The translations under genes were made by a program, and so were the position numbers. Below, piece by piece: positions 9,146 to 50,870 of a stretch of 64,000 bases of DNA. Origin of the DNA: Clostridiales bacterium (GTDB lineage: Bacteria > Bacillota > Dehalobacteriia > UBA7702). How positions within the stretch are numbered: the first letter of the stretch is position 1; each line of letters starts with the position of its first letter. The DNA is taken from positions 413,016 through 477,015 of the forward strand of contig JAXGZS010000001.1 of the NCBI GenBank assembly GCA_040776805.1, in the 5' to 3' direction. The notes beneath the pieces are model-generated. The model ran no database searches. It saw only the letters and a list, made by a program, of their open reading frames with translations, and was not told the origin of the DNA.

Positions 9146-9626
9146 GACTGTTTTCCTCCAAAAATACTCTATTTTTACGTGAATCATCAAGATCCTTAAA
9201 AAGTCTACTACATCTCTTATTTTTTGTCAATCAACGAAACGGGCGGCAAGAGGATCATCCATTTCTTCCTTTTATATATAACTTTTAAAATGAGCACGTT
9301 TGTTTTTTCATATGACGTGAACCAGGAGGAATTATAAAAAAGAAAGTCTCAACCAGATTTTTCTATTTCTCTGCAGTACGTTGACTTATGTTTATAAAAA
9401 TGGAAACTAAAAAATTGTGTTTCGTTTATTATTTTGCCCGAAAAAGGTATTCTTTGTGTGAAAGAATTGAAAATTCTTGCTTTTTAATTTTTTCGGGACT
9501 ATACTTAGAGCGTATTAAATGAATCTCCTTGCTTTTAGGGAAAAGGGATTGTTTTTATTTATATATGTTTTATATTTTCCTGAAAAATAGGCAGATTCAA
9601 AAAAACCAAAAGAAGAGGGGATTGAA

Positions 9627-18721: not shown

Positions 18722-18899
18722 AGGAACGGTCAGTTTCGGCGGTACGGAAATGAAAGTCCATCTCGGCCTGGTGGAAGCCAACATTGGCGATTATGTGCTG
18801 GTACACGCCGGCTGCGCCATTGAGGTGCTGCCGGAAGACCGGGCCCAGGAAATGATCGAGCTCTTTAAAGAATTAGATGACGAAGTGGAAAAAATCTGA
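18675..18899 (+). CDS. hypC: Hydrogenase assembly chaperone HypC
   Basis: The N-terminal MCIAIPGKL (essential Cys2) and 74-aa length fit HypC. The RBS is AAGGAGG. Confidence 0.85.
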   Translation: MCIAIPGKLMTMEGSKGTVSFGGTEMKVHLGLVEANIGDYVLVHAGCAIEVLPEDRAQEMIELFKELDDEVEKI

Positions 18900-19942: not shown

Positions 19943-19950
19943 GGTGCAAT

Positions 19951-21879: not shown

Positions 21880-21934
21880 GGTGTCCCTTGCCGACCAGTT
21901 CCAAAACTGTGACCAGCAAGGGACACCTTTTTTT
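21880..21934. terminator. Bidirectional terminator between the lipid kinase gene (+) and bioA (-)
   Basis: GGTGTCCCTTG...CAAGGGACACC followed by T7 on the plus strand; the reverse complement is preceded by A6. Confidence 0.6.
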
Positions 21935-23270
21935 ACAGTACTTCCTCTATGGCTGTGGCGCAGCGGTAAACGGCCTTATCCATCTCTGTTTCCGTGATGG
22001 TCAGAGGCGGATTGAAATAGAGTACGTTGCCCAAAGGGCGCAAAATCAGCCCGTGGGCCAAAGCCCTTTGGTAGATTTCGTAACCGATGCGTTTATTTTC
22101 GTCAAATCCCGCTTTCGTTTTTTTATCCGTTACCAGTTCCATGGCGTTGATCAGGCCGAGATGACGGATCTCGCCGATGTTGGGATGATCTGAGAGCCGT
22201 GTTAAAAGTTTTTTATGGAGATATTGGGCGCGGAGGGCGGCATTTTCTAAAATATGCTGCTCCCGCAAGATTTTCTGTACGGCCAGGGCCGCGGCGCAAC
22301 CCAGGGGATTGCCGCTATAGGTGTGACTGTGCATAAAAGCTTTGCCCTCTTTATAATCGGCGTAAAAGGCCTCATAAACCTTGTCCGTGGTGGCGGCGAT
22401 GGCCATGGGCAGATAGCCCCCGGTCAACCCTTTGGAAAGGCACATGATGTCCGGGGTTATGGCGGCGTGATCGCAGGCGAACATTTTGCCGGTACGGCCA
22501 AAGCCGGTGGCAATCTCGTCGGCAATCAACAACACGCCGGTCTGATCACAGAGAGCCCGTAGCTTTTTCAGGTAAAGGGGCGGGTAGATGCGCATGCCGG
22601 CGCTGCCTTGGAGGAGCGGCTCCACAATCACGGCGCAGGTGGTATCGGCGTAGCGGTCAAAGCATTTTTCAGCCTCTTCAAAGCAGTTTGCTTGGCAATT
22701 TTCGCGGTTTTGGCGGTAGGGGCAGCGGTAGCAGTCCGGGGCGGGAATCCGTACGGTATCCATGAGCAGCGGTTGGTAAATCTTTGCGTACATATCCAGG
22801 GAGCCTACGGCCAGGGCGCCGATGGTTTCACCGTGGTAGCCTTCACTTAAGCACATAAACCGGGTTCTTTTCATCTGACCCGTTTGGTATTGATATTGAA
22901 ACGCCATCTTTAAGGCGCATTCCACAGCGCTGGAGCCGCAATCGGAAAAATGAAATTTCGTCAGACCTCGGGGCACGCTTTTGCTAAGCTCTTGGCAGAG
23001 TTCAATGACGGGTTTGTGGGAAAAGTTGGCGAGAATCACGTGTTCCAATGTATCGAGCTGTTTTTTGACGGCTTCGTTGATTTCGGGATTGCAGTGCCCC
23101 AGCAGATTACACCACCAGGAACTGATGATATCGATGTACTCCTTGCCCTCCATATCGTAAAGATACACACCTTTGCCGCGGTCAATGACGATGGGGGGAA
23201 ATGATTCATAGTCTTTCATTTGGGAGCAGGGATGCCAAATATATTTTAAGTCTTTTTGGGCTAAATTCAT
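21933..23270 (-). CDS. bioA: Adenosylmethionine-8-amino-7-oxononanoate aminotransferase
   Basis: The N-terminus MNLAQKDLKYIWHPCSQMKDY... is characteristic of BioA. The 445-aa class-III aminotransferase is the last gene of the bio operon. Confidence 0.9.
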   Translation of the reverse strand: MNLAQKDLKYIWHPCSQMKDYESFPPIVIDRGKGVYLYDMEGKEYIDIISSWWCNLLGHCNPEINEAVKKQLDTLEHVILANFSHKPVIELCQELSKSVPRGLTKFHFSDCGSSAVECALKMAFQYQYQTGQMKRTRFMCLSEGYHGETIGALAVGSLDMYAKIYQPLLMDTVRIPAPDCYRCPYRQNRENCQANCFEEAEKCFDRYADTTCAVIVEPLLQGSAGMRIYPPLYLKKLRALCDQTGVLLIADEIATGFGRTGKMFACDHAAITPDIMCLSKGLTGGYLPMAIAATTDKVYEAFYADYKEGKAFMHSHTYSGNPLGCAAALAVQKILREQHILENAALRAQYLHKKLLTRLSDHPNIGEIRHLGLINAMELVTDKKTKAGFDENKRIGYEIYQRALAHGLILRPLGNVLYFNPPLTITETEMDKAVYRCATAIEEVL

Positions 23271-23947
23271 GGTCGTCTCTCCTCAAAAAGGGATCGTAGC
23301 GTGTCTTTGTCAATGGCGAGGTCGCCTGCGTCGGGAGGGATCAGGGCGAGGATAGGCAGTCCGGTGATGGCGTTAATCATCGCGGCGTTGTCTTTTTCCA
23401 TCGCCGTTTTCGTAAAGCGGTTCAGGATGACGCCGCGACAGCCGAGGTCCCTGCTCTTTAGGTATTCCGCCGTAAGCGTCACGGCGTTGATGGCGCCGAG
23501 ACCGGCGTCGGCGACGATGAGCGTATCAAGATTCAGGGCGACGATGATGTCTTCTAAAAAGATATGAGTTTTGTCGTCGTAACGAAGGGGACAGACGATA
23601 CCGCCGCTGCCCTCCACGAGAACGTATTCGTGCTTTTTCTTCACGTCCTCATAATCATGGCGAACCTTTGCCAGCTCCACGGGGTTTCCTTCCCATTTGG
23701 CGGCGAGGTGAGGGGAAACCGCATGCCGATAGAGGTAGGAAAGCAAGCTGTTTTCTTCCTGATCAAGGCTGGCGACAGCCTTGACGTAGCCCGCATCGCT
23801 TTCTTTGGTGCTGTCGGCGCCGGAGAGGGCCGCTTTGTAGTAGCCGACGTGAAAGCCGTATGCTTTCATGGCTTTGGCCAGGAGGGCGGTGACGTAGGTT
23901 TTCCCCACGTCCGTACCGGTGCCGGTGATGAAGAGTCCGTATCCCAT
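23267..23947 (-). CDS. bioD: Dethiobiotin synthetase
   Basis: The P-loop-like ITGTGTDVGKTYVT is present. 4-nt overlap with bioA. Confidence 0.85.
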   Translation of the reverse strand: MGYGLFITGTGTDVGKTYVTALLAKAMKAYGFHVGYYKAALSGADSTKESDAGYVKAVASLDQEENSLLSYLYRHAVSPHLAAKWEGNPVELAKVRHDYEDVKKKHEYVLVEGSGGIVCPLRYDDKTHIFLEDIIVALNLDTLIVADAGLGAINAVTLTAEYLKSRDLGCRGVILNRFTKTAMEKDNAAMINAITGLPILALIPPDAGDLAIDKDTLRSLFEERRP

Positions 23948-23948
23948 T

Positions 23949-24908
23949 TCATGATACCTCGTAACCCAGTTCTTTTAAGATCTCCAAATCCGCGGCGGCG
24001 GAAATGCCCTTTGTCGTCAGCATGTCCCCGGTGATGGCGGCGTTGGCGCCTCCGGAGAAACAGGCGCGGCCTTTGTCCTTTAAATTGCCGCGGCCTCCCG
24101 CCAGGCGTAAAAAAGCGTTGGGCAGCAGAAAACGGAACACGGTGACCATGCGCCGAACCTCCTCTTCGGATAGGGGCGTTACCTTTTCCAGGGGCGTTCC
24201 CGGAATGGGTTCCAATATATTGAGGGGGACGCTTTTGATTTCTAGCTCCCTTAGGGTAAGAGCCAGTTCGATGCGGTCTTCCACCGTTTCGCCCAGGCCG
24301 AAAATACCGCCGCTGCACACTTCAAGGCCATTCCTGCGCGCGGCGGAAATCGTTTTGATTTTATCGTCGTAACTGTGGCTGGTACAGATTTGGGGAAAGA
24401 AGCGGCGGGAGGTTTCCAGATTATTGTGAATTCTGGTTATCCCTGCCGCTTTTAATTGTTTCAATTGGCTTTCACTGAGGAGTCCCAAGGAAGCGCAGAG
24501 AACGAGAGACGTTTCTCTTTTGAGTGTTTCGATGCTGCGGCAGACTTTTTCCATTTCCCGCGCCGAAAGCGATTTGCCGGAGGTGACGATACCGAAATGC
24601 TTCACTCCCCCTTGCTCCTCGGCATTGGCGGCGCGGAGGAGTTCCCTTTGGCTCAAGAGGGGGTAAGCGGTGATTTCCGCGGGATAGCGGCTGGACTGGG
24701 CGCAGAACTTGCAGTCCTCACCGCAGCGGCCGCTTTTGGCATTGACAATGGCGCAGAGGTCGAAGCGGTTGCCGCAGAAACGGCGGCGAATCTCGTCGGC
24801 GGCGGCGTTTAGGGGGACAAGGGGCGCTTCATAAAGGGCAAGCGCCTCCTCTTTTGTTACGGTTTGTTCGTGGAATATTTTTTCTTTGAGTCGGGCAATC
24901 TGCTGCAT
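23949..24908 (-). CDS. bioB: Biotin synthase (radical SAM)
   Basis: The radical SAM cluster motif SGRCGEDCKFCAQS and the conserved Y..I...R residues are present. Confidence 0.9.
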   Translation of the reverse strand: MQQIARLKEKIFHEQTVTKEEALALYEAPLVPLNAAADEIRRRFCGNRFDLCAIVNAKSGRCGEDCKFCAQSSRYPAEITAYPLLSQRELLRAANAEEQGGVKHFGIVTSGKSLSAREMEKVCRSIETLKRETSLVLCASLGLLSESQLKQLKAAGITRIHNNLETSRRFFPQICTSHSYDDKIKTISAARRNGLEVCSGGIFGLGETVEDRIELALTLRELEIKSVPLNILEPIPGTPLEKVTPLSEEEVRRMVTVFRFLLPNAFLRLAGGRGNLKDKGRACFSGGANAAITGDMLTTKGISAAADLEILKELGYEVS

Positions 24909-24909
24909 G

Positions 24910-25473
24910 TCATTTCCTTTGCATTTGCTGTACGATGGGGAGCAGGCGTTTGCCGAGGCCGGCGGCGACGGCGCAGAGCAGAAGATCCCCCGGTATCGGC
25001 AGCAGAAAACAGTATAAAAGAAGCGTGCGCACGGTCATGGCGTCTCCCAAATAAAAGCGGCTGATGACCCAACAGTAAGCCATGCCCAGGGCATAAACCA
25101 CAAGTAAGCCGGCGAAACTCGCCGCAAAGAGTCTTTTCACGGAAGGGTGGGGCGACTGTTCGGTGATTCTGCCGGTAACGAAAGCGCCGAGGCAAAAACC
25201 GAGCAGGTAACCGAAGCTGGGCTGAAAAACGTAGGCGAGGCCGCCGCCGGCGGCAAAGACGGGGAATCCCGCAAGACCCAGCAAGATATAGCAGGCGACG
25301 CTAAGGGCGCCGAGTCTGGAACCGAGGAGCATCCCGGCCAGGGTTGTAAAGAGAAATTGCAGGGTGAAGGGAACCACCGGAACGGGAATGCGGAGGAACG
25401 CGCCAAGAACGATCAATGCCGTGAATAAGGCGCAGAGTATTTGATTTTTGACGGTGATGGGATGTTGATTCAT
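24910..25473 (-). CDS. bioY: Biotin transporter BioY (ECF S-component)
   Basis: The N-terminus MNQHPITVKNQILCALFTALIVLGAFLRIPVPVVPFTLQ is typical of BioY. The start is probably ATG 25473; the ORF-track 24-codon extension lacks an RBS, so the start is uncertain. Confidence 0.75.
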   Translation of the reverse strand: MNQHPITVKNQILCALFTALIVLGAFLRIPVPVVPFTLQFLFTTLAGMLLGSRLGALSVACYILLGLAGFPVFAAGGGLAYVFQPSFGYLLGFCLGAFVTGRITEQSPHPSVKRLFAASFAGLLVVYALGMAYCWVISRFYLGDAMTVRTLLLYCFLLPIPGDLLLCAVAAGLGKRLLPIVQQMQRK

Positions 25474-25486
25474 CGGCGTGCGCCCA

Positions 25487-26467
25487 TCATTTCCAGCGAA
25501 CGCTGACTTCACCACTGTCCAAGGCATTTTCATTGCCATTCTCATCGCGGACGATCAGCCGAAAGTGATCGTCGATGGCGACGGCAGTGGCGGTATGCTC
25601 TTGGTTATGGCGCGATACGGTGATTTTTTGCCCCAGGAGAAAAGAGCGTTTTCGATATTCGGACAAGAAGGCCTTCTCCGTCAGCTTCTCATAATAGGGT
25701 ATAAAATGATTGAGAATTTCCGCTGCAAGCCGGCTTTTTATGCTGTTTTTGGTTTTTGCGTCGGTAAAAAGAGAGGTGGCGACCGTTTCCAGTTCCGGGG
25801 GAAAGTTCTCTTTCGGAGGGAAAACATTGACGCCGATGCCGACGACGGCGTAATCAAGACCGCCGTTTTCCATGGCGAGCGCGGCTTCAGTGAGAATGCC
25901 GCAAACCTTTTTACCGTCGAGATAAACATCGTTGACCCATTTGATTTGGGCGTTTTTGCCGGTGACGGCCTCAATGGCGAGGGCCGCCGCCGTCGCCGCC
26001 GCTGTGGTCAGTAAAAGGGAATCGGTAACGGAATACTTTGGCCGCAACAGGATGCTCATATAGAGACCCGTGTTGGCCGGGGAAAAGAAGCCTCTGTTTC
26101 TTCTTCCTCTGCCGGCACTCTGCTCCTCCGCAATGACCACGACGCCTTCGGTTTCGCCCTGATCGGCGAGTTCTCTTACGATCGCATTGGTTGAGGTGAC
26201 CAACGGATGCTTGATGAAACGTAATTCTTTTGCCGCGCCGGTCAGCTTTTCCGCAACGGTCGCCGCGGTGAAAAGATCGGTGTCCGCGGCGAGGGCGTAA
26301 CCCTTATTGGTGACGGCGGTAATGTCATAGCCTTCGGCTTGCAGCGATTTGATGCTTTTCCATACGGCGGCTCTGGTCACATAGAGGCGGGCGGCCAGCT
26401 CTTCGCCGGAAACGAAAGAGCCTTTCTCCGCAGCCAATAACGATAAAATTTGATCCTTGAGATTCAT
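25487..26467 (-). CDS. birA: Bifunctional biotin-protein ligase / bio operon repressor BirA
   Basis: An N-terminal wHTH (ELAARLYVTRAAVWKSIKSLQAEGYDI) is joined to a BPL catalytic domain. It is the first gene of birA-bioYBDA. Confidence 0.85.
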   Translation of the reverse strand: MNLKDQILSLLAAEKGSFVSGEELAARLYVTRAAVWKSIKSLQAEGYDITAVTNKGYALAADTDLFTAATVAEKLTGAAKELRFIKHPLVTSTNAIVRELADQGETEGVVVIAEEQSAGRGRRNRGFFSPANTGLYMSILLRPKYSVTDSLLLTTAAATAAALAIEAVTGKNAQIKWVNDVYLDGKKVCGILTEAALAMENGGLDYAVVGIGVNVFPPKENFPPELETVATSLFTDAKTKNSIKSRLAAEILNHFIPYYEKLTEKAFLSEYRKRSFLLGQKITVSRHNQEHTATAVAIDDHFRLIVRDENGNENALDSGEVSVRWK

Positions 26468-26597: not shown

Positions 26598-29500
26598 TTA
26601 TTTCAGCAGATCCAGGATTTCCAAATTGCTCTTGCCTCCCGGGGGACAAAGGGTCTGCTCTCTCCTGAATTCGGTGCCGCAGTTGCAGGCCACGGTACCG
26701 CTGGTTTCAAAGCTGGTGGCGAAGGGCAGGACGATCTCGGCGTTGTTTGTTTCAGCGGTATGGCGCGGCGCGATCATCAGCAGGCGTTGGCTTTTGCCGG
26801 GAATCCCCGTTTCATCACCGATTATGACGAGCGCCTTTAAATGGTCGTTTAAGAGATCGGGAGTTTTGACCCCCGCGCCCCGGTAAATTTCGGTGTTGGC
26901 CGCGCTGTGTAGCACCAAGAGCTTGGCGCCGACGGCTTTGGCCAATGCCGCCCCCTTGGCGCAAGTTTTGGCATCGGCGCTCGTTTCGGCGATGATCACC
27001 AGATCGGTCTCTTTCGAGACTTCAATTTTATCGTCCTTTGTAAAGCAGCGTACCTCTGCTTTTGCTTTTGCCATGCGGATTCCGGCTACGGGATTATCGG
27101 TATAAGGGTCTTCCCCAACGTATACGATATGTTTGGCGTGATCGATATCCGTCACCTTGGCGTCGCCCTTGACGTCGTAAGTCAGGGCGGCGGGAGAGGC
27201 GATGATCTCGGTACCCAGGGTATTTTTGGCGAAATCGACGTAAGCGGCGACTTCTTCTTTGGTGAGATTGGCGGCGAGGAAAACGCCGATTTCATTTTTA
27301 CCGTATTTCTTGACCCTTGCTTTGAGGGTCGCGGCGGCTTTCTCGTAAGTGGTTTCTTTGCCGTCCACCGTAGGTGTTTTTACCCGTTCGCCGCCGAGGA
27401 CCGTTTCATAGCCGAATTTTCCCTTTTTGCAGAGAAGGCCCGTTTCTTCCCGGGGGATCACCCGGCAGAGCTGATTGCCGAAGGTCAGCACCGTGGTTTT
27501 GCAGTTGATGGCGCATTGACCGCAGCTGCCGGCGGTGGGCTGTTCCGCCAAGGGAACGCGTTTGCCCAGAAGCTGTTTTTCTGTGAGAGCGCCGGTGGGA
27601 CAGACGTTGATGCATTGGCCGCAGGTGATGCACGTTGAATCCGCCAGGGAAATATTGAATTCCGGTTGGATGATGGTTTCAAAGCCGCGGTGAACCAGGC
27701 CCCAAACGCCTTTGCCCACCACTTCGTCGCAGACTCTGACACAGAGACCGCAGAGGATGCATTTGTCGCTGTCCCTGTCGATATAGGGGTTATGGTCGGC
27801 CATATTCCGTTTGCGCACCGTATCGCCGAAGCTGTTTTCCGCCAGTTGATATGTTTGGCCGTAGCGAATCAGTTTACATTCGTAGTAGTCGGCGCAGCCG
27901 CATTCAAGACAGCGGGAACCTTCGGCGACGGCATCTGCTTCGCTGAGACCGAGGAAGACTTCGTCAAAGGTCCGTTTTCTGCTTTCCCCGGGGAGACGCG
28001 GTCCGTTGCGGCGGGGCATTTTTTCCCGGTCGGCGAGGTCTTCGGCGGTGACGTTTTTGATTTTGGAAAGGAACGGTTCCGTATAGGGAATGATATCGCC
28101 TTTCAGGTAGCTGTCAATGATATCGGCGGCGCGGTGGGCGTCGGCAATGGCTTCTATGGCGATGCCGGGGCCGTTGTTGATGCCGTCGCCGCCGGCGAAT
28201 ACGCCCTTTTGATCCGTGAGGAAGGTGTGTTCATCGGCCTTGATCGTATGCCAGTCGGTTAAACCCACGGGGATACCGTCGGCTACGACCTGCTGGCCGA
28301 TGGCGGCGATGACCGTATCCAGCGCCAAATCTTCGAAGGCGCCCTCGATGGCCACGGGACGGCGTCTGCCGGAGGAATCCGCCTCTCCCAGTTCCATCTT
28401 TTGCAGGCGAATCCCGCTGACTCTGTCGTTTTCCGTCAGCACTTCCGTGGGGGCCACGAGGAAACGGAATTCCACGCCTTCTTCTCGGGCTTCTTTGATT
28501 TCCAGGGCTTCCGCCGGCATTTCCTTTTCCGTGCGGCGGTAGAGGACGTAGACCTTTTCCGCGCCGAGGCGGAGGGCGGTGCGGCAGGCGTCCATGGCGG
28601 TGTTGCCGCCGCCGACCACGGCGACGTTTTTGCCGAGGTACGGTTTTTCACCCCGGGCCACGGCGATCAAAAAGTCGATGCCGCCTAAGACCCCTTGGGC
28701 CTCTTCGCCTTTGCAGCGCAGCGCCGCGCTTTTCCAGGCGCCGATGGCCACATAAACGGCGTCGCTGCGATCTTTCAATTCCGCGAAGTCGATGTCTTTG
28801 CCGACTTTCGTGTTGTAGCGAAAGGTCACGCCGAGACGGGCGATATTTTCGATTTCCAAATCCAGGATTTCTTTGGGTAGTCTATATTGAGGGATGCCGT
28901 AGCGGAGCATACCGCCGCCTTTGGGCATGGCTTCGATGATTTCCACACGGTGGCCTTTTAAAGCCAAAAAGTAGGCGGCGGTGAGCCCGGCGGGACCGGC
29001 GCCGACGACGGTGATCTGCTTCCCGCTGGGGGCGGGTATTTCCTCGATAAAGCGGTCGTCACCAAAAAGATCCATATCCGCGGCGAAGGCCTTTAATTCC
29101 GCGATGGCAATGGGCTCCTCCACCAACCGGCGGCGGCAAGCCTCCTCGCAGGGATGGGGACAGATCCGTCCGATGCAGGCCGGCAAGGGGATCACTCGCT
29201 TGATGACGCGGAGCGCTTCCTTATATTTGCCGTTGGCGATGAGTCCCGTATAGGCCTGACAGTTGGTATGGCCGGGACACGCCAAGGTGCAAGGAGGGCG
29301 GCAGTCGCCTCGATGATCGGAGAAAAGCAATTCCAAGGCGACCTTGCGGGCTGTAGCGGCCCGTTTGCCCTGGGTATGGAGGACCATCTTTTCGTTGGCT
29401 GCCGTGGCGCAGGCTCGGTACAGTTTGGGGCTATTTTCGTCTTCCACCAGACAGACGCCGCAGGCGCCGTAGGTTTCTACCAGGGGATGATGACACAAAG

Positions 29501-29600
29501 TGGGGATCTCAAGGTTGTTGGCGCGGGCCACGTCGAGGATGGTTTGTCCCTTTTCAAAGGTGCATTTTTTATGATCAATGGTCATTTGCAAGGTACTCAT
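26598..29600 (-). CDS. 1000-aa iron-sulfur flavoprotein: an N-terminal [2Fe-2S] domain, a GltD-like NAD(P)H/FAD domain, 2x[4Fe-4S], and a C-terminal HydA/NuoG-like domain that lacks H-cluster motifs. This is a candidate StnC-like subunit of a Sporomusa-type Nfn transhydrogenase
   Basis: It contains GltD-type cysteines (CRPPCTLACP, CIGRICPHPCEEAC), the dinucleotide fold VVGAGPAGLTAAYFLALKG and a second fold VVGGGNTAMD. Ferredoxin motifs are CILCGLCVRVC and CITCGQCINVCP. No TSCCP/MPCxxK H-cluster signatures are seen. Confidence 0.6.
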   Translation of the reverse strand: MSTLQMTIDHKKCTFEKGQTILDVARANNLEIPTLCHHPLVETYGACGVCLVEDENSPKLYRACATAANEKMVLHTQGKRAATARKVALELLFSDHRGDCRPPCTLACPGHTNCQAYTGLIANGKYKEALRVIKRVIPLPACIGRICPHPCEEACRRRLVEEPIAIAELKAFAADMDLFGDDRFIEEIPAPSGKQITVVGAGPAGLTAAYFLALKGHRVEIIEAMPKGGGMLRYGIPQYRLPKEILDLEIENIARLGVTFRYNTKVGKDIDFAELKDRSDAVYVAIGAWKSAALRCKGEEAQGVLGGIDFLIAVARGEKPYLGKNVAVVGGGNTAMDACRTALRLGAEKVYVLYRRTEKEMPAEALEIKEAREEGVEFRFLVAPTEVLTENDRVSGIRLQKMELGEADSSGRRRPVAIEGAFEDLALDTVIAAIGQQVVADGIPVGLTDWHTIKADEHTFLTDQKGVFAGGDGINNGPGIAIEAIADAHRAADIIDSYLKGDIIPYTEPFLSKIKNVTAEDLADREKMPRRNGPRLPGESRKRTFDEVFLGLSEADAVAEGSRCLECGCADYYECKLIRYGQTYQLAENSFGDTVRKRNMADHNPYIDRDSDKCILCGLCVRVCDEVVGKGVWGLVHRGFETIIQPEFNISLADSTCITCGQCINVCPTGALTEKQLLGKRVPLAEQPTAGSCGQCAINCKTTVLTFGNQLCRVIPREETGLLCKKGKFGYETVLGGERVKTPTVDGKETTYEKAAATLKARVKKYGKNEIGVFLAANLTKEEVAAYVDFAKNTLGTEIIASPAALTYDVKGDAKVTDIDHAKHIVYVGEDPYTDNPVAGIRMAKAKAEVRCFTKDDKIEVSKETDLVIIAETSADAKTCAKGAALAKAVGAKLLVLHSAANTEIYRGAGVKTPDLLNDHLKALVIIGDETGIPGKSQRLLMIAPRHTAETNNAEIVLPFATSFETSGTVACNCGTEFRREQTLCPPGGKSNLEILDLLK

Positions 29601-29612
29601 GTGCTGCCTCCT

Positions 29613-31367
29613 TTACTCTACGATCACGGCGCCGAATTTACAAACGGCTTCGCAATTCCCGCAGTGGATACAGGTATTGGCGTCGATTACCTGAGGCTTT
29701 TTCTTTTCGCCGCTGATGGCCTCAACGGGACACTTCTTTTTACAGGCCATACAAGCCGTGCATTTTTCCGGGTCAATGCGAAAGGTTAAAAGGGGCTTGC
29801 ACTTTTTGGCGGGGCACCGATGATCTTCGATATGGGCGCGGTATTCGTCTTCAAAATGGCGAATGGTGCTCAATACGGGATTGGGGGCGCTCTGACCGAG
29901 GCCGCAGAGGGAACCGGCGATGATGTTTTCACCTAAGGTTTTCAGCGTTTCGATGTCGCCGTTTTTGCCTTCGCCGTTGACGATGCGTTCTAAAATCTCC
30001 AGCATCCGCTTGGTACCGATGCGGCAATGAACGCATTTGCCGCAGCTTTCCTCTTTGGTGAATTGGAGGAAAAACCGAGCCATATCCACCATACAGGTGG
30101 TTTCATCCATGACGATCATACCGCCGGAACCCATGATGGCGCCGACTTTGGTAATGCTCTCATAGTCTACTGCCGTATTGAGCAGGCTCTTAGGAATGCA
30201 GCCGCCGGAGGGGCCGCCCATCTGGACGCCTTTGATTTCCCGGTCGTCTTTGATGCCGCCGCCGATGCCGAAGATGATCTCGTGGATGGTCATACCCATG
30301 GGCACTTCCACCAGGCCGCCTTTTTTGACTTTGCCGGCCAGGGCGAAGACTTTGGTGCCCTTACTCTTTTCCGTGCCCAGGGCGGCGAAGGCGTCGCCTC
30401 CCTGGCGGAGAATCCAGGGTACGTTGGCATAGGTTTCCACGTTATTGATATTACTGGGTTTCTGGCGGTAGCCGCGTTGGGCGGGGAAAGGCGGTTTCAG
30501 CCGGGGCATACCTCGCTCCCCTTCCAGGGAGGCGATGAGGGCCGTTTCCTCACCGCAGACGAACGCGCCGGCGCCGGCTTTGATTTCCAGGCGGAAAGAG
30601 AAGTCGGTGCCTAAAATATGGTCGCCCAAATAGCCTTTTTCCTCTTCTTCCTGAATGGCTTTTTCCAGGCGCTTGATGGCCAGGGGATATTCGGCGCGGA
30701 CGTAAATTTTGCCCTCGGCGGCGCCGATGGCGTAAGCGCCGATCATCATGCCTTCGAGCACGCTGTGGGGATTGCTTTCCAATAAACTCCTGTCCATGAA
30801 GGCGCCGGGGTCGCCTTCGTCGGCATTGCAGATCATGTATTTGATATCGCTTTGGTTTTGCCGGGCCACGTTCCACTTAAACCAGGTGGGAAAACCGGCG
30901 CCGCCCCGGCCCCGGAGACCGGAAATTTTGATTTCTTCGATGACTTCTTCCGGTGTCAGCTCAAGGAGACAGTGCTTTAAGGCTTGAAAGCCGTCGTGTT
31001 CGATGTATTCCGCGATGTCTTCGGGGTTGATTACGCCGCAATCGCGCAAGGCGATGCGGGTCTGTTTTCCCAAAAAGGCCATATCGTCTTGGGGAACGAG
31101 GTATTCCTCAAAGGGAACTCCCTGATCCAGGTGGCTCTTTAAGAGCGCAACCGCTTTTTCCCCATCAATTTTCGCGTAAAGATAGTGCTTTTTCTTGTCG
31201 TTATCAATGACTTCGACCACGGGTTCATTGAAACAGGCGCCGATGCAGCCCACGGGTTTCAGTGTAACGTCGAGGTTTTCCTTTTCAATCAGCGCGGCGA
31301 TGGCGTCAAAGGTTTTTTGAGCGCCGGCGGCAATACCGCAGCTGCCCATACCCACTGTAATGATCAT
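29613..31367 (-). CDS. NuoF/HydB-like NADH-binding FMN flavoprotein subunit with an N-terminal thioredoxin-like domain and C-terminal 2x[4Fe-4S] (candidate StnB)
   Basis: The true start is ATG 31367, with GGAGG 9 nt upstream and an ATGA overlap with the upstream gene. The NuoF core is present. C-terminal ferredoxin motifs are CTACMACKKKCP and CIHCGNCEAVC. Confidence 0.7.
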   Translation of the reverse strand: MIITVGMGSCGIAAGAQKTFDAIAALIEKENLDVTLKPVGCIGACFNEPVVEVIDNDKKKHYLYAKIDGEKAVALLKSHLDQGVPFEEYLVPQDDMAFLGKQTRIALRDCGVINPEDIAEYIEHDGFQALKHCLLELTPEEVIEEIKISGLRGRGGAGFPTWFKWNVARQNQSDIKYMICNADEGDPGAFMDRSLLESNPHSVLEGMMIGAYAIGAAEGKIYVRAEYPLAIKRLEKAIQEEEEKGYLGDHILGTDFSFRLEIKAGAGAFVCGEETALIASLEGERGMPRLKPPFPAQRGYRQKPSNINNVETYANVPWILRQGGDAFAALGTEKSKGTKVFALAGKVKKGGLVEVPMGMTIHEIIFGIGGGIKDDREIKGVQMGGPSGGCIPKSLLNTAVDYESITKVGAIMGSGGMIVMDETTCMVDMARFFLQFTKEESCGKCVHCRIGTKRMLEILERIVNGEGKNGDIETLKTLGENIIAGSLCGLGQSAPNPVLSTIRHFEDEYRAHIEDHRCPAKKCKPLLTFRIDPEKCTACMACKKKCPVEAISGEKKKPQVIDANTCIHCGNCEAVCKFGAVIVE

Positions 31368-31894
31368 GACTGAGCGCCTCCTTCCGCTTGATAAATACCT
31401 TTGATGATCCGCCGTGCGGATTTCGCTGTCAGCGGGCCGAAAACTTCGCTGTTTTGACCCGTGCGGACCATCATCACCGGCGCCATGGAACAGCAGCCCA
31501 AACAGGCGACGCTTTCCATGGTGAAGAGGTTGTCGGCGGTGGTTTCGCCGTCTTTGATTTTGAGTTCGTCTTCCAGGGCCGCGGCGATATTTTCGCTGCC
31601 GTTCACGTGGCAGGCAGTGCCTTGGCAAAGCATGATGAGATGCTTGCCCACAGGATGCAAGCGAAACTGCGCGTAGAAGGTGACGACACCCATGATTTTG
31701 GTGACCTTAAGGCAGAGGGCGTCGCCGATGGCGTAGATGGCGTCTTTGGGCAAATAGCCGTAGATATCTTGGGTTTTCTGCAGCACGGTGATCAAGCTGC
31801 CGGGGAGGTTTTTGTATTCCGCGAGCAGCGGCTGTAATTTTGTCAGGTCGGTTTTGGGTTTTTCAGGCTTTGAACCGCAGGAACATTTGGTCAT
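31364..31894 (-). CDS. NuoE/HydC-like thioredoxin-fold [2Fe-2S] subunit (candidate StnA)
   Basis: The four NuoE-type cluster cysteines (CQGTAC and CLGCC) are present. The RBS is GGAGG. Confidence 0.7.
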   Translation of the reverse strand: MTKCSCGSKPEKPKTDLTKLQPLLAEYKNLPGSLITVLQKTQDIYGYLPKDAIYAIGDALCLKVTKIMGVVTFYAQFRLHPVGKHLIMLCQGTACHVNGSENIAAALEDELKIKDGETTADNLFTMESVACLGCCSMAPVMMVRTGQNSEVFGPLTAKSARRIIKGIYQAEGGAQS

Positions 31895-35269: not shown

Positions 35270-35313
35270 CATAGTTTTTTTTGATTCGGAAAAACTATGC
35301 CCGGAGGAAGACG

Positions 35314-35811
35314 ATGTCTGAAGATCTTGAAAAATCAATGAATGAATCATTGAGACAGGCCAAACAAAAAGAATACGCGGAACTCGTGGCGGAAACAAAA
35401 CCAAAAACGCCGGTGCTGAAAAACCTCTGCCGCGCTTTTCTGGTCGGCGGTTTGATCTCCGTGATCGGCCAGATCATCTATGAACTGCTCAAGCTAACGT
35501 CCATAACGGACAAACATTGCGTTACCGTGACGCTGATGATCCTAATCGCCGCCGGGGCGGTCTTGACGGGGCTGGGCCTTTACGATAAGATCGGCAAATT
35601 CGCCGGCGCCGGCTCCATTGTGCCCATCAGCGGTTTTTCCAATTCTATGGTGGCTCCGGCTCTGGAATGGAAAACCGAAGGCTTAATCGCCGGTTTGGCC
35701 GCGAAACTGTTTACCCTGGCCGGCCCTGTGATCGTCTATGGCGTCTGTGTTTCCGTGGCTTTGGGGTTGCTGAAATATTTGTGGTTGTTGTTCACGGGAG
35801 GTTTGCCATGA
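35314..35811 (+). CDS. spoVAC: Stage V sporulation protein AC
   Basis: A SpoVAC/SpoVAEB-family 4-TM protein. The RBS is GGAGGAAG. A GCATA element about 40 nt upstream may be the -35 of a forespore sigma promoter. Confidence 0.85.
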   Translation: MSEDLEKSMNESLRQAKQKEYAELVAETKPKTPVLKNLCRAFLVGGLISVIGQIIYELLKLTSITDKHCVTVTLMILIAAGAVLTGLGLYDKIGKFAGAGSIVPISGFSNSMVAPALEWKTEGLIAGLAAKLFTLAGPVIVYGVCVSVALGLLKYLWLLFTGGLP

Positions 35812-36830
35812 GCTGTCTCGGAAGAAATACGTATCTCTTCGATCAAGGAGTACACATTTTAAGCGGCGCCGCTGTGGTGGGGCCCAAGGAAGGCGAGGGG
35901 CCTTTGGGCCCGTGTTTCGATAAAGTTTGGCCCAAAATTCAGACCGCGGAAAAGTCCTGGGAGGATACGGAAGTCAAAATGCAGAAAGAAGCCGTCGATC
36001 TTGCCCTGGCAAAAGCGGCTTTGGGCGATCATATGATCGACGTTCTGCTGGGCGGTGATCTGATCAACCAGCTCACCATCACCAATTTCGCTGCCAAGGA
36101 GAGGGAAATTCCCTTTCTTGGTTTATATAACGCTTGTGCCACCATGGCGGAGGGCCTTCTTTTGGGAGCATCCCTCATCGGCGGCGGCTTTGCCGCTGAT
36201 GCCGCCGTGGTGGCGTCAAGTCATAACGCTACCAGCGAACGGCAGTACCGTTTTCCTACGGAGCTGGGCACCCAGCGTCCCCAGACCAGTCAATGGACGG
36301 TGACCGGGGCCGGCGCCATGGTCTTATCAAAGCAGCCGTCGCCGCTGCGGATCATCAGCGGCACAGTGGGGAAGATTGTCGATTACGGTGTCAAAGACCC
36401 CAATGAAATGGGGGCCGCCATGGCCCCGGCGGCGGCGGATACGATTTTACAGCATCTGCGAAACAACGATAGAAAAGCCGCGGATTATGATCTGATCTGT
36501 ACCGGCGATCTCGGTTCCCACGGTCACTGTCTCTTGGCAGAACTGCTGAAAAAGGAGCATGTTGTCGTTGAGGAACAGCTCCAGGACAGCGGCATGTGGA
36601 TCTATCAAAAAAAACAGGATAGCCACGCCGGCGGCTCCGGCTGCGGCTGTTCCGCCACGGTTTGGAGCTCCTACCTTCTTGACGCCCTGCACCGCGGCAA
36701 ATACCGGCGTGTTTTATTGGTGGGTACCGGCGCGCTGCTGAGTCCTGTCAGCATCGGTCAGGGCCATGCCATTCCCGCCATTGCCCACGCTGTGGAGATC
36801 GTAAAGGAGGGAAAGACGGTATGTGGATGA
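35808..36830 (+). CDS. spoVAD: Stage V sporulation protein AD
   Basis: ATGA overlap with spoVAC. A thiolase-like fold with the SpoVAD N-terminus MSCLGRNTYLFDQGVHILSGAAVVGPKEGEGPL. Confidence 0.85.
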   Translation: MSCLGRNTYLFDQGVHILSGAAVVGPKEGEGPLGPCFDKVWPKIQTAEKSWEDTEVKMQKEAVDLALAKAALGDHMIDVLLGGDLINQLTITNFAAKEREIPFLGLYNACATMAEGLLLGASLIGGGFAADAAVVASSHNATSERQYRFPTELGTQRPQTSQWTVTGAGAMVLSKQPSPLRIISGTVGKIVDYGVKDPNEMGAAMAPAAADTILQHLRNNDRKAADYDLICTGDLGSHGHCLLAELLKKEHVVVEEQLQDSGMWIYQKKQDSHAGGSGCGCSATVWSSYLLDALHRGKYRRVLLVGTGALLSPVSIGQGHAIPAIAHAVEIVKEGKTVCG

Positions 36831-37183
36831 ACTTATTATGGGCCTTTCTGATCGGCGGCGTCATCTGCGCCATCGCCCAGATCGCCATGGATCTGACACC
36901 CTTTTCCATCAGCAACGCCCACGTTTTGGTGACGGTGGTCATTGCCGGGGAAATCATCGGCTTTTTCGGCCTTTATCAGCCTCTGGTGGATTTTGCCGGG
37001 ATGGGCGCGTCCGTGCCCCTTTGCGGCTTCGGCAACACGATGATGCAGGGAGTCGTGACCGCCATGGAAAAAGACGGCTTTATAGGTATTTGGACGGGAG
37101 CCTTTACCGCCGGAGCCGCGGGGCTTTGCGCCGCCATCGTCTCAGGTTTTTTGATCGCAATATTTTTGAAGCCAAAAGGATAA
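36821..37183 (+). CDS. spoVAEB: Stage V sporulation protein AE (SpoVAEB)
   Basis: A 120-aa membrane protein that is a paralogue of SpoVAC. The RBS is AAGGAGGG. Confidence 0.85.
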   Translation: MWMNLLWAFLIGGVICAIAQIAMDLTPFSISNAHVLVTVVIAGEIIGFFGLYQPLVDFAGMGASVPLCGFGNTMMQGVVTAMEKDGFIGIWTGAFTAGAAGLCAAIVSGFLIAIFLKPKG

Positions 37184-37257
37184 TAATTAAACATCAAGAT
37201 GATTCGTTACCCTTTGCTTTGCCGCGGTCTTTGTGTTTTAATAGAATCAGTAAATGA

Positions 37258-37440
37258 ATAAAGTTAAGTGCGGAGAAATCGGGTTTGAATCCCGAACGGT
37301 CGCGCCACTGTGAAACGGAGCTTACTTTAGACGCCAGTCAGCCACTGCCATAAGCGGGAAGGCAAAGTATAGCGATGATGTGAAGTCAGGATATTCCGAA
37401 CTTAATGCTGTACTCGCAGCTTCCGCGTAAGGAGTGATGC
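37258..37440 (+). promoter_or_regulatory. Cobalamin (B12) riboswitch aptamer
   Basis: Conserved blocks appear in the canonical order: GGGTTTGAATCCC, CGCGCCACTGTGAAACGGAGC, CAGCCACTGCC, GCGGGAAGGC, and GATGATGTGAAGTCAGGATATTCCGAAC (a B12-box variant). A sigma70-like promoter (TTGCCG-17-TAGAAT) lies at about 37214-37245. Confidence 0.6.
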
Positions 37441-37457
37441 ATTTTTTCGATGTAAAT

Positions 37458-37493
37458 GCCCCGTTTCTTTTCGGAAGCGGGGCAGTTTTGTTT
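37458..37493 (+). terminator. Riboswitch expression-platform terminator (GCCCCG...CGGGGC followed by a T-run); an alternative pairing CTTCCGC / GCGGAAG is possible
   Basis: The stem-loop plus U-tail follows the aptamer directly. The CUUCCGC segment upstream could form an anti-terminator with GCGGAAG. Confidence 0.5.
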
Positions 37494-37792
37494 GCTGATG
37501 TTGCCAAACCTTCTTTTATTCTATTCCGTATCTCATGGGGGCTTGCCCCCCCGTATCTCTCATCTCTTTTGCTTTCAGCCAATGCTGAACTCACCTCTTC
37601 ATAAATTTTATACGGAAATCTCTTTTTTTTCCTTGCGGTGAACAACCGCAATTTTTTTTGCCCGTGTTCTTTGCTGTTTGGCCGTTTCTTCTAATATTTC
37701 CAGATTCCCTGATTCCCTCATAAAATGCCCTTAGACCGACATGACGCGAGGCTGAGATAAGGCGTTAAAGGCTTGGCGTGCCGCGCTAAAAA

Positions 37793-37822
37793 GCCGGGAC
37801 TGATTTGCAATCAGTCTCCGGC
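37793..37822 (-). terminator. Terminator for the convergent minus-strand transcript (hairpin followed by TTTTT on the minus strand)
   Basis: GCCGGGACTGA...TCAGTCTCCGGC; the reverse complement is followed by CTTTTTAGCG. Confidence 0.5.
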
Positions 37823-37855
37823 TTGTTTCCTTGGCGTCCTTTTAAGGAGGGCTTT

Positions 37856-38059
37856 TCAGTGTAAGACATTCATTTTGTTTTTGGGCAGATCAATTTCAAG
37901 AACCCAGAAGAGGATTTCCAGTTTATGGATGAGGGAAAGAATCCTTAAATCCAGCTCTCCGCCGCAATGGCGGCCCAAGCGTTCCTTTTCGTTGACTGCG
38001 TCCAAAAGCTCTTTGCGATACCGCTCCATACGCTTGGCGACGTCTTCTTCTTCTCTCAT
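37856..38059 (-). CDS. Possible small helical protein (66 aa from ATG; the ORF track starts it at an upstream TTG)
   Basis: The sequence MREEEDVAKRMERYRKELLDAVNEKERLGRHCGGELDLRILSL... is coherent and charged. The RBS is weak or distant. It is co-oriented with, and 15 nt downstream of, the nitroreductase gene. Confidence 0.3.
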   Translation of the reverse strand: MREEEDVAKRMERYRKELLDAVNEKERLGRHCGGELDLRILSLIHKLEILFWVLEIDLPKNKMNVLH

Positions 38060-38122: not shown

Positions 38123-38680
38123 TCAACCGATGAAAAACACGTTGCCTTCTTTGCGCTCCGGCGCTTCCTGGGCAGCTCCTTCCGGGTACCCCAAAGCAAC
38201 GGCAAAGCGGGGAATCTTGTCGGCGGGCAGTTGCAGCAGTGATCGTAAACGGGGCCCTTCTTCACTGTCAAAGGCCGGCAGGAAGGAGGCGATATAGCAG
38301 GAACCGAGGTTCAGACTGTGGGCGGCCAAACAGATGTTTTCCGCGGCGTTGGCGGCGTCGGCAATGCCGAAGGGCACGTCTTCACTGCTGATAAAGATCA
38401 CGGTCGGGGCATGATAGAAATTACAGAAGGGTTTGCCGCCCATCCGCGTTTCCACTCGTTTGATGTAGTCTGTTGGCAGCAATTTGTGGTTGACCGCGGA
38501 AATTTCGGCGATGACACCGCTCTCCCGTACCACGGTAAAATAACAAGACTGGATGTTCATGGCAGTGGGCGCGAATTTCGCCGCGGCGATGATTTGAGCC
38601 AGTTCTTTTTCGTCAATGGGCCGCGGGGAAAAATTGCGGCAGCTTCTTCTCGTAAGCATATTCAAAATAATTTCATTCAT
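38123..38680 (-). CDS. Nitroreductase-family flavoprotein
   Basis: The N-terminus MNEIILNMLTRRSCRNFSPRPI carries the nitroreductase RRSxR motif. The start is ATG 38680 after AGGAAGAGGA. The ORF-track N-terminal extension was rejected. Confidence 0.8.
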   Translation of the reverse strand: MNEIILNMLTRRSCRNFSPRPIDEKELAQIIAAAKFAPTAMNIQSCYFTVVRESGVIAEISAVNHKLLPTDYIKRVETRMGGKPFCNFYHAPTVIFISSEDVPFGIADAANAAENICLAAHSLNLGSCYIASFLPAFDSEEGPRLRSLLQLPADKIPRFAVALGYPEGAAQEAPERKEGNVFFIG

Positions 38681-38846
38681 CTGTCCTCTTCCTTTCCGTA
38701 AAATCATAAATATTATTCTAATGATAACATAAAAAAAGCAAATTGCCAAAGGACTATCGCTATCGCCACCGCAAAGAAGGTTGAAAAATGGCATTACTTG
38801 AGATATAATATTTCATAGGAAGGTGTAAATTAAAAGAGGAGCAGTG

Positions 38847-39497
38847 ATGGATACATTTCAGAAAGAAGTCTATGTGAAATTGATCAACCGCGCGATTGGG
38901 GAAAAAGGCGTCACGCATTTTGCGAAAAAAGCGTCGTTGAGCGCAGGCAATCTTTCCCGGATCAGAAAAGGGCAGCTGGCCACCGTGGAAACGTTGAAAA
39001 AAATCGCCGCCGCCGCCGAAGGCGTGTCTTTTGCGGAATTGATGGATGCCGCGGGCTACACGGAGTCGGTGTTTTTAAAAGCCGCCGATCCCATGGCTGT
39101 GCCCACCACCAGCAAGGTGATCAGTATTCCCGTGGTGGAAGCGCTTCATGGCACGAAGAAAGAAATCAAGCAGGATGATTCATTGAAAAAGGAATATTAT
39201 TATGCCGACGCTTTCGGCAGCGGCGAGTTTATCTTTTTTGTCGTTAACGACGATGCCTTTGCGCCCAAAGTCAACCGCGGTGATAAGGTTTTGATCGATA
39301 TGGCGAAAAAACCGAGGGAAGGGGAGATCGCCCTGTTTTTGCTGAACGGGGAAGAAACCATGCTCCGCCATTTGACCCGACAAGGCAAAAAATACTACTA
39401 TTATGGGAACGACCTCGGTAAATATCCCATGACGGAAGCGAATAGCGCGGATATTAAAATATTCGGCACCGCGGTTCGCGCTTTTGTCACCATGTAA
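38847..39497 (+). CDS. XRE-family HTH regulator with a C-terminal LexA/S24 peptidase-like domain in which both catalytic-dyad residues appear substituted
   Basis: An N-terminal HTH is followed by a segment that aligns to the LexA C-domain (GDKVLID, EGEIALF). At the Ser/Lys dyad positions this protein reads NDDAF and TMLRHL instead of GDSM and TVKRL. Confidence 0.7.
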   Translation: MDTFQKEVYVKLINRAIGEKGVTHFAKKASLSAGNLSRIRKGQLATVETLKKIAAAAEGVSFAELMDAAGYTESVFLKAADPMAVPTTSKVISIPVVEALHGTKKEIKQDDSLKKEYYYADAFGSGEFIFFVVNDDAFAPKVNRGDKVLIDMAKKPREGEIALFLLNGEETMLRHLTRQGKKYYYYGNDLGKYPMTEANSADIKIFGTAVRAFVTM

Positions 39498-39578: not shown

Positions 39579-39668
39579 CGCGCAAGAGCAAGGAACGCCC
39601 CATTGCGGAAAGATTGATCCTCGCCGGCTTTTGCCGGTACTTTATTTTATGCGCCGATCTCTTTTTTG

Positions 39669-39800
39669 TTAACAACATCCGCATCTTCCGCAACCACAGC
39701 CGCCGCCGCAGCAACAGACGCTGCGGCAACCGCAACCGCAGCCGCAGCCGCATCTGCAAAAACACGGTCCCCAGAAGGGCCAGAAAAAGAAAGGAAACAT
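39669..39800 (-). CDS. Candidate 43-aa micro-protein MFPFFFWPFWGPCFCRCGCGCGCGCRSVCCCGGGCGCGRCGCC (20 Cys)
   Basis: ATG at 39800 is preceded by GAGGTG with a 5-nt spacer. The frame is open to TAA at 39669-39671. It has an aromatic hydrophobic N-terminus and a Cys/Gly-rich body encoded by a (GCN)n repeat. It is below the ORF-track length cutoff. The codon-by-codon translation is given in findings. Confidence 0.4.
   Translation of the reverse strand: MFPFFFWPFWGPCFCRCGCGCGCGCRSVCCCGGGCGCGRCGCC
39682..39752. repeat. GC-rich trinucleotide (GCN)n simple-sequence tract
   Basis: GCCGCCGCCGCAGCAACAGACGCTGCGGCAACCGCAACCGCAGCCGCAGCCGCATCTGC. Confidence 0.6.
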
Positions 39801-39909
39801 GGTTTCACCTCATTTCAATCTCGTCTTTCTTTATTTTATGAGGGCCTTTCCCCATTGGTGCGGACATATTTGAAAAGAGCGCCCCGTACAATGAAGCGAG
39901 GTGTTTTTT

Positions 39910-50783: not shown

Positions 50784-50870
50784 GCCGAAGTGGTGGAATA
50801 GGCAGACACGCGGGACTTAAAATCCCGTGGTAGCGATACCGTACCGGTTCGACCCCGGTCTTCGGCACCA
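50784..50870 (+). tRNA. tRNA-Leu (anticodon UAA), class II with a long variable arm
   Basis: The acceptor stem is GCCGAAG/CTTCGGC, followed by ACCA. The anticodon stem CGGGA/UCCCG carries loop CUUAAAA, giving anticodon UAA. The length is 87 nt. Confidence 0.85.

Follow-up and report, generated by a model that had tools for sequence, protein, structure and literature searches.

We propose, with moderate confidence and on computational evidence throughout, that positions 37219-37659 of a 64,000-nt stretch of a Clostridiales genome (hereafter the window, in whose coordinates positions are given unless another locus is named) form a single transcription unit that would produce a non-coding regulatory RNA gated by a cobalamin (vitamin B12) riboswitch. 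At its core is a segment of about 165 nt after the riboswitch terminator T1 (37499-37659), which is a conserved non-coding module ending in a terminator of its own, T2. The original prediction, made from the window sequence, had described an orphan riboswitch in the layout of a riboswitch-controlled non-coding RNA. Both points were borne out, as promoter-like site, aptamer, T1, module, and T2 follow one another, and the riboswitch has no protein gene behind it in any of its three diverged carrier lineages. Of the roughly 350 nt downstream of the riboswitch, however, the prediction had said that they hold no credible ORF, and it missed the module, which occupies the first half of that interval.

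A conserved non-coding module downstream of the riboswitch

Related loci were recovered through a SpoVAD search and through look-ups of homologues of a convergent small open reading frame (ORF), and they fall into four clades. Three of these have the riboswitch, placed between spoVAEb and the small ORF: the window-type loci (L001, L002, and L085-L089), L003 together with L106, and L103-L105 (hereafter, the L003 and L103 lineages). The closest genome is that of Peptococcaceae bacterium UBA7702. The three carrier lineages are well separated, with SpoVAD and SpoVAE proteins that are 67-72% identical between them and four-fold degenerate sites in spoVAD and spoVAE that are only 39-51% identical. 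Against these near-saturated sites, five blocks of 8-13 nt remain identical and in the same order after T1 in all nine distinct copies of the element, which argues for selection on the module.

The conservation has a sharp end. Among close relatives, identity to the window is 94-97% in the aptamer and 83-92% in the module, but 15-65% in the spacer past T2, and T2 thus marks the boundary of the unit. A hairpin followed by 7-10 uridines is found at this place in every copy, with stem sequences that vary. Within the module, the distances between blocks (C to D, D to E, C to E, and E to F) occur in all three phases modulo 3, even among close relatives, so that neither strand codes for protein here. 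The one ATG that is shared in this region reads CTG in L103. Together, the block phases and this substitution rule out a peptide on either strand, and the original statement that the plus strand holds no credible ORF stands; the frames of 56-61 amino acids (aa) present are mechanical only.

The blocks differ in their predicted accessibility. Block E, the longest, has an unpaired probability of 0.59-0.93 across the nine distinct copies and might serve as a seed or binding site. Between blocks D and F, 8 bp of complementarity would give a stem, stem S (UUCCGUAU/AUACGGAA); every window-type copy has block D paired in its minimum-free-energy fold, and the block's unpaired probability is about 0.16. 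Block C pairs with a downstream segment in L003 and L103, where the partners co-vary (CCAAAC/GUUUGG versus CCAAAUU/AAUUUGG). Compensatory changes are also seen in hairpin a among close relatives (GGGUC/GACCC, GGGGC/GCCCC, and GGGUU/AACC), and hairpin b has equivalents in L103 (UUCCG/CGGAA) and L003 (UUCCG/CGGGA), with one compensatory pair (A-U to C-G). The module helices were read from the individual sequences, as MAFFT misaligned the diverged lineages.

No Rfam family matched the module, and it lacks ANTAR dual hexaloop hairpins, CsrA-type GGA clusters, and TRAP-type triplet repeats. When about 1.2 Mb of DNA was searched with an nhmmer profile and with regular expressions, the module was found only beside these riboswitches. 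A metagenome-wide search with the pattern TCACCTCTTCATN{0,12}ACGGAAAN{0,1}TCT returned 11 matches, all of them chance hits without the other blocks or a riboswitch. As a separate observation, L103 carries an extra exact copy of block D (ATTCCGTAT) on the minus strand (4691-4699 of that locus), upstream of the riboswitch promoter and just past the spoVAEb stop codon.

Aptamer, expression platform, and promoter-like site

Judged by its covariance-model match, the 5' part of the unit is a genuine cobalamin aptamer, for which cobalamin binding and switching are predicted. The B12 aptamer of the original prediction is recognized by the Rfam model RF00174 (Cobalamin) at 37277-37393 on the plus strand, with a score of 56.0 bits, where 31.5 is the gathering threshold (E = 3.2e-11 for the full 64 kb and 5.5e-13 locally); apart from it, Rfam models match only a tRNA-Leu in the window. 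The match in the window is local (model positions 49-166), and orthologous copies are matched over the full length of the model (1-189) with 58-74 bits. The closing helices are readable in the sequence as pairings of GUUAAGU (37263-37269) with ACUUAAU (37400-37406) and of CGGAG (37271-37275) with UUCCG (37394-37398). The outer of these, P1, co-varies between lineages, reading CAAAACG/CGUUUUG in L003 in place of the GUUAAGU/ACUUAAU of window-type copies, and a different A/U-rich pairing in L103. All sequence motifs listed in the original prediction are present, with GCCACUG, GGGAAGGC, and GAAGUCAGGA aligning to the RF00174 consensus in canonical order. The match to RF00174 and the presence of a P6 extension make the aptamer class-I-like.

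The aptamer is followed by the elements of a terminator-type expression platform. In all lineages, a GCUUC/GAAG(U/C) hairpin (P13) presents the loop L13, which reads CGCGUAA (CGCGAUA in L103). Its CGCG is complementary to the CGCG of L5 (GGUCGCGCC), and from this sequence complementarity a tertiary contact is predicted. All cobalamin riboswitch classes share such an L5-L13 kissing loop, which in terminator-type switches stabilises the platform hairpins (PMC7367189).

The intrinsic terminator that had been noted after the aptamer corresponds to T1, a 12-bp stem followed by GUUUUGUUUG, and T1 is present with different sequences in L003 and L103. The competing pairing proposed along with it (CUUCCGC/GCGGAAG) needs revision: the literal GCGGAAG does not occur in the terminator, and while a 7-bp GCUUCCG/CGGAAGC pairing is possible, it is not the one that co-varies. 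It is the P13 3' strand and the T1 5' arm that form the conserved pairing. Its partners change together between lineages (AAGGAGUG/CGUUUCUU in the window, AAGAAGUG/CGCUUCUU in L003, and GAAGCG-GGG/CCC-CGCUUC in L103), and when the nascent RNA is folded up to the T1 5' arm, this helix is the minimum-free-energy structure in all three. This arrangement predicts a B12-OFF switch, in which B12 binding should lock P13, free the T1 5' arm, and terminate transcription. The platform agrees with the mechanism published for terminator-type cobalamin riboswitches (PMC7367189).

Upstream of the aptamer, the promoter-like site TTGCCG-17-TAGAAT is present as originally noted. Taken alone it is weak, since eight such sites occur in 2.2 kb where 2.2 are expected. 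A TTGnnn-17-TAnAnT site is kept at the equivalent position in both diverged lineages, however (TTGTTT-17-TATACT in L003 and TTGTGC-17-TATAAT in L103). All features of the element and its immediate surroundings are listed in Table 1.

Table 1. Features of the riboswitch-module unit and flanking genes (window coordinates)
Feature	Position	Strand	Remarks
spoVAEb	36821-37183	+	Last gene of spoVAC-spoVAD-spoVAEb; Pfam PF03862, E = 2.6e-31
Sigma-70-type promoter-like site, TTGCCG-17-TAGAAT	37219-37247	+	Predicted; start predicted near 37254
Conserved 5' leader, CAGUAAAUGAAU (GUAAAUAAAU in L103)	37248-37259	+	Invariant alignment columns
Cobalamin aptamer, P1 5' strand to P1 3' strand	37263-37406	+	RF00174, 56 bits
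L5, GGUCGCGCC	about 37298-37306	+	Within aptamer
B12 box, GAAGUCAGGA	37383-37392	+	Within aptamer
P13/L13 hairpin: GCUUC, loop CGCGUAA, GGAGU	37419-37435	+	Invariant in all copies
Antiterminator: AAGGAGUG (37429-37436, P13 3' strand) with CGUUUCUU (37462-37469, T1 5' arm)	37429-37469	+	
Terminator T1 (riboswitch terminator)	37457-37494	+	12-bp stem 37457-37484, then GUUUUGUUUG
Block C, UGUUGCCAAA	37499-37508	+	Invariant
Block D, AUUCCGUAU	37523-37531	+	Invariant; 5' strand of stem S, pairs with block F
Hairpin a, GGGGGC-UU-GCCCCC	37537-37550	+	Window-type copies only
Block D', CGUAUCUC	37552-37559	+	Invariant; mostly unpaired (probability 0.55-0.85)
Hairpin b, UUCAGC-CAAU-GCUGAA	37574-37589	+	Equivalents in L103 and L003
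Block E, UCACCUCUUCAUA	37591-37603	+	Longest invariant block (13 nt); predicted single-stranded
Block F, AUACGGAAA	37610-37618	+	Invariant; 3' strand of stem S
Terminator T2, UUGCGG-UGAACAA-CCGCAA then U8	37633-37659	+	3' end of conserved unit
Unconserved spacer	37660-37795		Outside unit; 15-65% identity; length 0-196 nt across lineages
Bidirectional terminator-like hairpin serving the convergent small ORF	37796-37818		Sites on both strands
Convergent small ORF, 67 aa (MREEEDV...)	37856-38059	-	Start probably 38059; narrow family without annotation
Nitroreductase-family gene	38123-38680	-	Outside conserved unit; Pfam PF00881

Distribution and loss

Riboswitch and module always occur together and never apart. 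The fourth clade (L107 and L109) has neither: about 90-100 nt separate its spoVAEb from the small ORF, and these contain an ordinary terminator hairpin and no riboswitch. Its SpoVAE is closer to that of L003 (identity 0.77) than the window protein is to those of the other carriers (0.69-0.74), which places the riboswitch-less clade within the carriers. The simplest history would therefore be one clean loss in this clade, in which riboswitch and module disappeared together. Given such a loss, the gene content of carriers can be compared with that of non-carriers, and a partner of the RNA might be identified in this way. Among 77 more distant spoVAD loci (about 45% identity), none has a B12 aptamer or a module block.

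The locus is rearranged, and likewise without riboswitch, in L081-83 and L101-102. In the close relative L081 (1541-4202; also in L082 and L083), the nitroreductase and small-ORF pair is followed not by spoVA but by a cluster for corrinoid-dependent methyl transfer on the same strand, encoding a B12-binding protein, a URO-D/MtaA-like protein, a 45-aa ORF, and a pterin-binding protein, with no riboswitch. Another structured RNA occupies the same relative position in L042, a distant metagenome-assembled genome of Clostridia from goat rumen, where a TwoAYGGAY RNA (RF01731; 48.4 bits, with a gathering threshold of 43) is located at 9055-9194, directly downstream of the spoVAD match.

Proposed mechanism and function

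We envisage that a constitutive-type promoter drives transcription into the class-I-like aptamer. With B12 bound, probably as adenosylcobalamin, the L5-L13 kissing loop would lock the short P13 hairpin, whose 3' strand could then not pair with the T1 5' arm; T1 would form and transcription would stop near 37494, giving an RNA of about 240 nt. Without B12, the P13 3' strand would pair with the T1 5' arm as an antiterminator, and the polymerase would continue through the module to T2 near 37659, giving an RNA of about 405 nt. The pyrimidine-rich, non-coding module would be the effector part of this longer RNA, displaying the accessible, invariant 13-nt sequence UCACCUCUUCAUA beside the stem UUCCGUAU/AUACGGAA. 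It would most likely act in trans when B12 is scarce. It might pair with target mRNAs, block E resembling an anti-Shine-Dalgarno sequence. Alternatively, it might sequester an RNA-binding protein, as EutX does with EutV.

A more specific reading, which we hold only tentatively and consider less probable than not, is that the module is the effector of a new B12-sensing trans-regulator in gut or anaerobic Peptococcaceae-like Clostridia. The anti-Shine-Dalgarno-like UCACCUCUUC would be exposed at B12 scarcity and, together with the flanking blocks, might silence a specific set of mRNAs or titrate an RNA-binding protein other than an ANTAR protein. If so, B12 status would be tied to a process outside eut and pdu, for example corrinoid-dependent methyltransferases or sporulation and germination, the latter suggested because of the fixed position of the element after spoVA.

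Small RNAs of the RoxS/RsaE type in Firmicutes pair with Shine-Dalgarno regions through pyrimidine- or C-rich seeds. The module shares with them an accessible pyrimidine-rich segment (UCACCUCUUC) beside stem-loops and an intrinsic terminator, but it has no sequence relationship to them and no Rfam match. Its resemblance to the 16S anti-Shine-Dalgarno region is marginal as well: compared with the 16S rRNA 3' end (helix 45 and the anti-Shine-Dalgarno sequence), it scored P = 0.02-0.16 against dinucleotide shuffles. Mimicry of the 16S 3' end is thus a weak lead.

Several observations weigh against a B12-gated, trans-acting RNA. With regard to function, RNAduplex comparisons with the translation-start regions of neighbouring genes in the three lineages gave scores that did not discriminate, no target was shared, and no protein partner emerged; nor did blocks C, D, and E have further copies beyond chance in the 64-kb window. 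At least one nested clade can do without the element. With regard to structure, stem S is invariant and hence offers no covariation, block C has no internal partner in window-type copies, and the secondary structure of the module is conserved only in part, hairpin a being confined to the window type. When the complete L103 sequence is folded, the antiterminator outcompetes T1, which makes the efficiency of switching uncertain, and promoter activity at 37219-37247 is predicted from a consensus match. Finally, the sample is small, comprising three carrier lineages that are all represented by metagenome-derived contigs.

Alternative explanations

The convergent genes downstream suggest a different role, namely cis-antisense control or transcriptional interference of the pocR type, in which read-through past T2 in the absence of B12 would lower expression of the 67-aa ORF and, where present, the nitroreductase. 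Both minus-strand genes of the original prediction are there, the convergent geometry is found in every carrier lineage, and in L003 and L103 the small-ORF stop codon adjoins T2 with a 0-nt spacer, so that slight read-through would already yield antisense RNA. A precedent exists in AspocR, which is 230 nt long with B12 and 1,400 nt without (PMC8079631). In every copy, however, a hairpin with 7-10 uridines (T2) stands between module and ORF, the spacer between them is unconserved and ranges from 0 to 196 nt, and the five invariant blocks upstream of T2 would be left unexplained. The small ORF also persists unchanged in lineages without the riboswitch, and it has no known link to B12. We therefore regard antisense control as unlikely, if worth keeping in mind. 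Of the two precedents that the original prediction had offered, the EutX/Rli55 layout accordingly fits better than pocR-type antisense, as T2 would separate the RNA from the ORF.

The upstream side offers a second alternative, in which the element belongs to the 3' untranslated region (UTR) of the spoVA operon and B12 selects the 3' end of the spoVA transcript at T1 or T2. The stability of spoVA mRNA might change as a result, or an RNA derived from the 3' UTR might be formed in the forespore. The same-strand genes 5' of the riboswitch are a NAPRTase gene and then spoVAC-spoVAD-spoVAEb, and in every carrier lineage the element lies directly after spoVAEb on the same strand. A terminator scan found no terminator between the spoVAEb stop (37183) and the promoter or aptamer, and the clade that lost the element has an ordinary terminator hairpin in its place. 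The operon having no terminator of its own ahead of the riboswitch promoter (35281-37260), forespore spoVA transcripts would enter the aptamer and end at T1 or T2. A riboswitch that controls upstream RNA is reportedly known in Vc2. Yet the -35 and -10 elements keep their 17-nt spacing in three lineages amid diverged sequence, which favours an independent start, and the invariant single-stranded blocks are again unexplained. As the sole function, we find this rather improbable; it is compatible with a regulatory RNA from the 37219-37659 unit, and the two are not mutually exclusive.

It is also conceivable, but very unlikely in our estimation, that the short T1-terminated RNA is itself the functional product, acting in trans like SreA and SreB or buffering B12, with the module being secondary. 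Trans-acting terminated riboswitches are known (reviewed in PMC8079631), and aptamer and platform are the most conserved parts of the unit (94-97% among close relatives), but selection on the module (83-92%, with blocks invariant across lineages) would have no explanation. Least credible of all is a decaying remnant left by deletion of a btu, cbi, or other gene, with a pseudogene or small-peptide gene downstream: this is a common cause of seemingly orphan riboswitches and mechanical ORFs of 56-61 aa do exist, but the gene-less layout is kept across lineages with near-saturated neutral sites, no frame is preserved on either strand (the candidate ATG being CTG in L103), the aptamer is intact everywhere (56-74 bits), and loss, where seen, is clean and entire.

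Relation to known cobalamin riboswitches

The literature searched describes two kinds of cobalamin riboswitch that control non-coding RNA, the EutX/Rli55 small RNAs (from Enterococcus faecalis, from Listeria monocytogenes, and from S. sanguinis) and AspocR, all of which belong to eut or pdu regulation in Bacilli. Neither a link between cobalamin riboswitches and spoVA nor the present module is described there.

EutX of E. faecalis and Rli55 of L. monocytogenes are sponge small RNAs gated by a B12 riboswitch (PMC5821096; bioRxiv 10.1101/2020.08.10.244764), and the order promoter, aptamer, T1, effector, T2 is the same as here (PMC5821096; PMC8237595). Like them, the present unit stands alone, with its own (here predicted) promoter, a 5' cobalamin aptamer, and a riboswitch terminator that would yield a short form with B12, as judged here by sequence; it likewise would have a longer form with a functional 3' part and controls no coding sequence. 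RNAs of this type can in principle lie anywhere in the genome (PMC5821096). In contrast to EutX and Rli55, the module lacks the dual hexaloop hairpins bound by ANTAR proteins such as EutV (A at position 1, G at position 4) in any lineage, its effector sequence is unrelated, and it sits after spoVA, with no eut or eutVW locus nearby. The aptamers differ too: the present one matches RF00174, has a P6 extension, and is class-I-like, whereas class IIb is the type described for eut riboswitches (PMC11477304). Membership in the EutX family is ruled out by the lack of ANTAR hairpins, the lack of a nearby eut locus, and the different aptamer class.

AspocR, which is antisense to pocR in L. monocytogenes, has in common with the present element a B12 riboswitch that faces a convergent gene, and a short terminated form with B12 (about 230 nt in AspocR) next to a longer one without (PMC8079631). 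The long form of AspocR is, however, a 1.4-kb antisense RNA over a B12-related regulator, whereas here a conserved T2 precedes the convergent ORF, this ORF is without a known link to B12, and sequence conservation is found upstream of the zone of overlap.

The aptamer, B12 box, L5-L13 kissing loop, and P13 hairpin followed by an intrinsic terminator with OFF logic are shared with classical terminator-type switches, such as B. subtilis yvrC and the btuF/cbi leaders (PMC7367189). Unlike in these, no downstream coding sequence or operon is found in any lineage, and the product would be a non-coding module with a terminator. The original prediction that this is not a classical B12 biosynthesis or transport operon is in line with the surrounding genes: none of the ORFs scanned between 18.9 and 50.6 kb of the window is a cob, cbi, btu, eut, or pdu gene, and the flanks of the related loci have no eut, pdu, or cob genes either.

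Should the proposed reading be correct, the element would represent a third, unrelated effector module, placed behind a class-I-like aptamer and under selection in Clostridia, and riboswitch-gated regulatory RNAs would be a more general design than the eut case suggests. It would also provide a concrete unit for experiments, about 405 nt long, whose 5' and 3' ends are defined and whose candidate contact sites are invariant.

Neighbouring genes

The protein encoded by the convergent small ORF matches no Pfam, NCBIfam, or PDB sequence. AlphaFold predicts a two-helix hairpin (pLDDT 85), for which Foldseek returned non-specific matches. We considered a Spo0E-like identity, which no search supported. 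A type I toxin-antitoxin arrangement was rejected for two reasons: the small protein is no membrane peptide, being charged and amphipathic, and it is retained where the RNA has been lost. In nearly every related locus that is long enough, the small ORF is accompanied by a gene for a LexA-like protein with a helix-turn-helix (HTH) domain and an S24 peptidase domain (38844-39497, plus strand, in the window), irrespective of whether the nitroreductase or the riboswitch is present. The LexA-like gene and the small ORF (37856-38059) may thus form a regulatory pair.

For the nitroreductase, the original prediction had hinted at BluB. This did not hold up, as the BluB model TIGR02476 matches only residues 4-62 with 28.6 bits against a cutoff of 150, and the gene is absent from two of the three carrier lineages (L003 and L103).

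Farther away, the window contains a biotin cluster on the minus strand (21933-26467), comprising a class-III aminotransferase (BioA-like), a dethiobiotin-synthetase-like AAA_26 protein, a radical-SAM/BATS protein (BioB-like), a BioY transporter, and a BirA-like biotin ligase with an HTH domain. A 1000-aa fusion of 2Fe-2S, pyridine-nucleotide oxidoreductase, 4Fe-4S, and molybdopterin domains adjoins a NuoF-like protein of 671 aa, and hypD and hypE-like hydrogenase maturation genes are found near this pair (regions 26598-31628, minus strand, and 18899-20931, plus strand); together, these genes resemble a formate dehydrogenase or hydrogenase-type module. The tRNA-Leu (anticodon UAA; 50784-50870, plus strand) has a long variable arm and is the sole tRNA of the window. 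Finally, an alanine-rich ORF of 53 aa (MKPCFLSFSGPSGDRVFADAAAAAV...; 39647-39808, minus strand) lies in intergenic sequence that is GC-rich and repeat-like, flanked by the LexA-like gene and spmA; L001 and L002 have similar ORFs, and gene calling places a 53-aa gene at the corresponding position of L085 (1259-1420).

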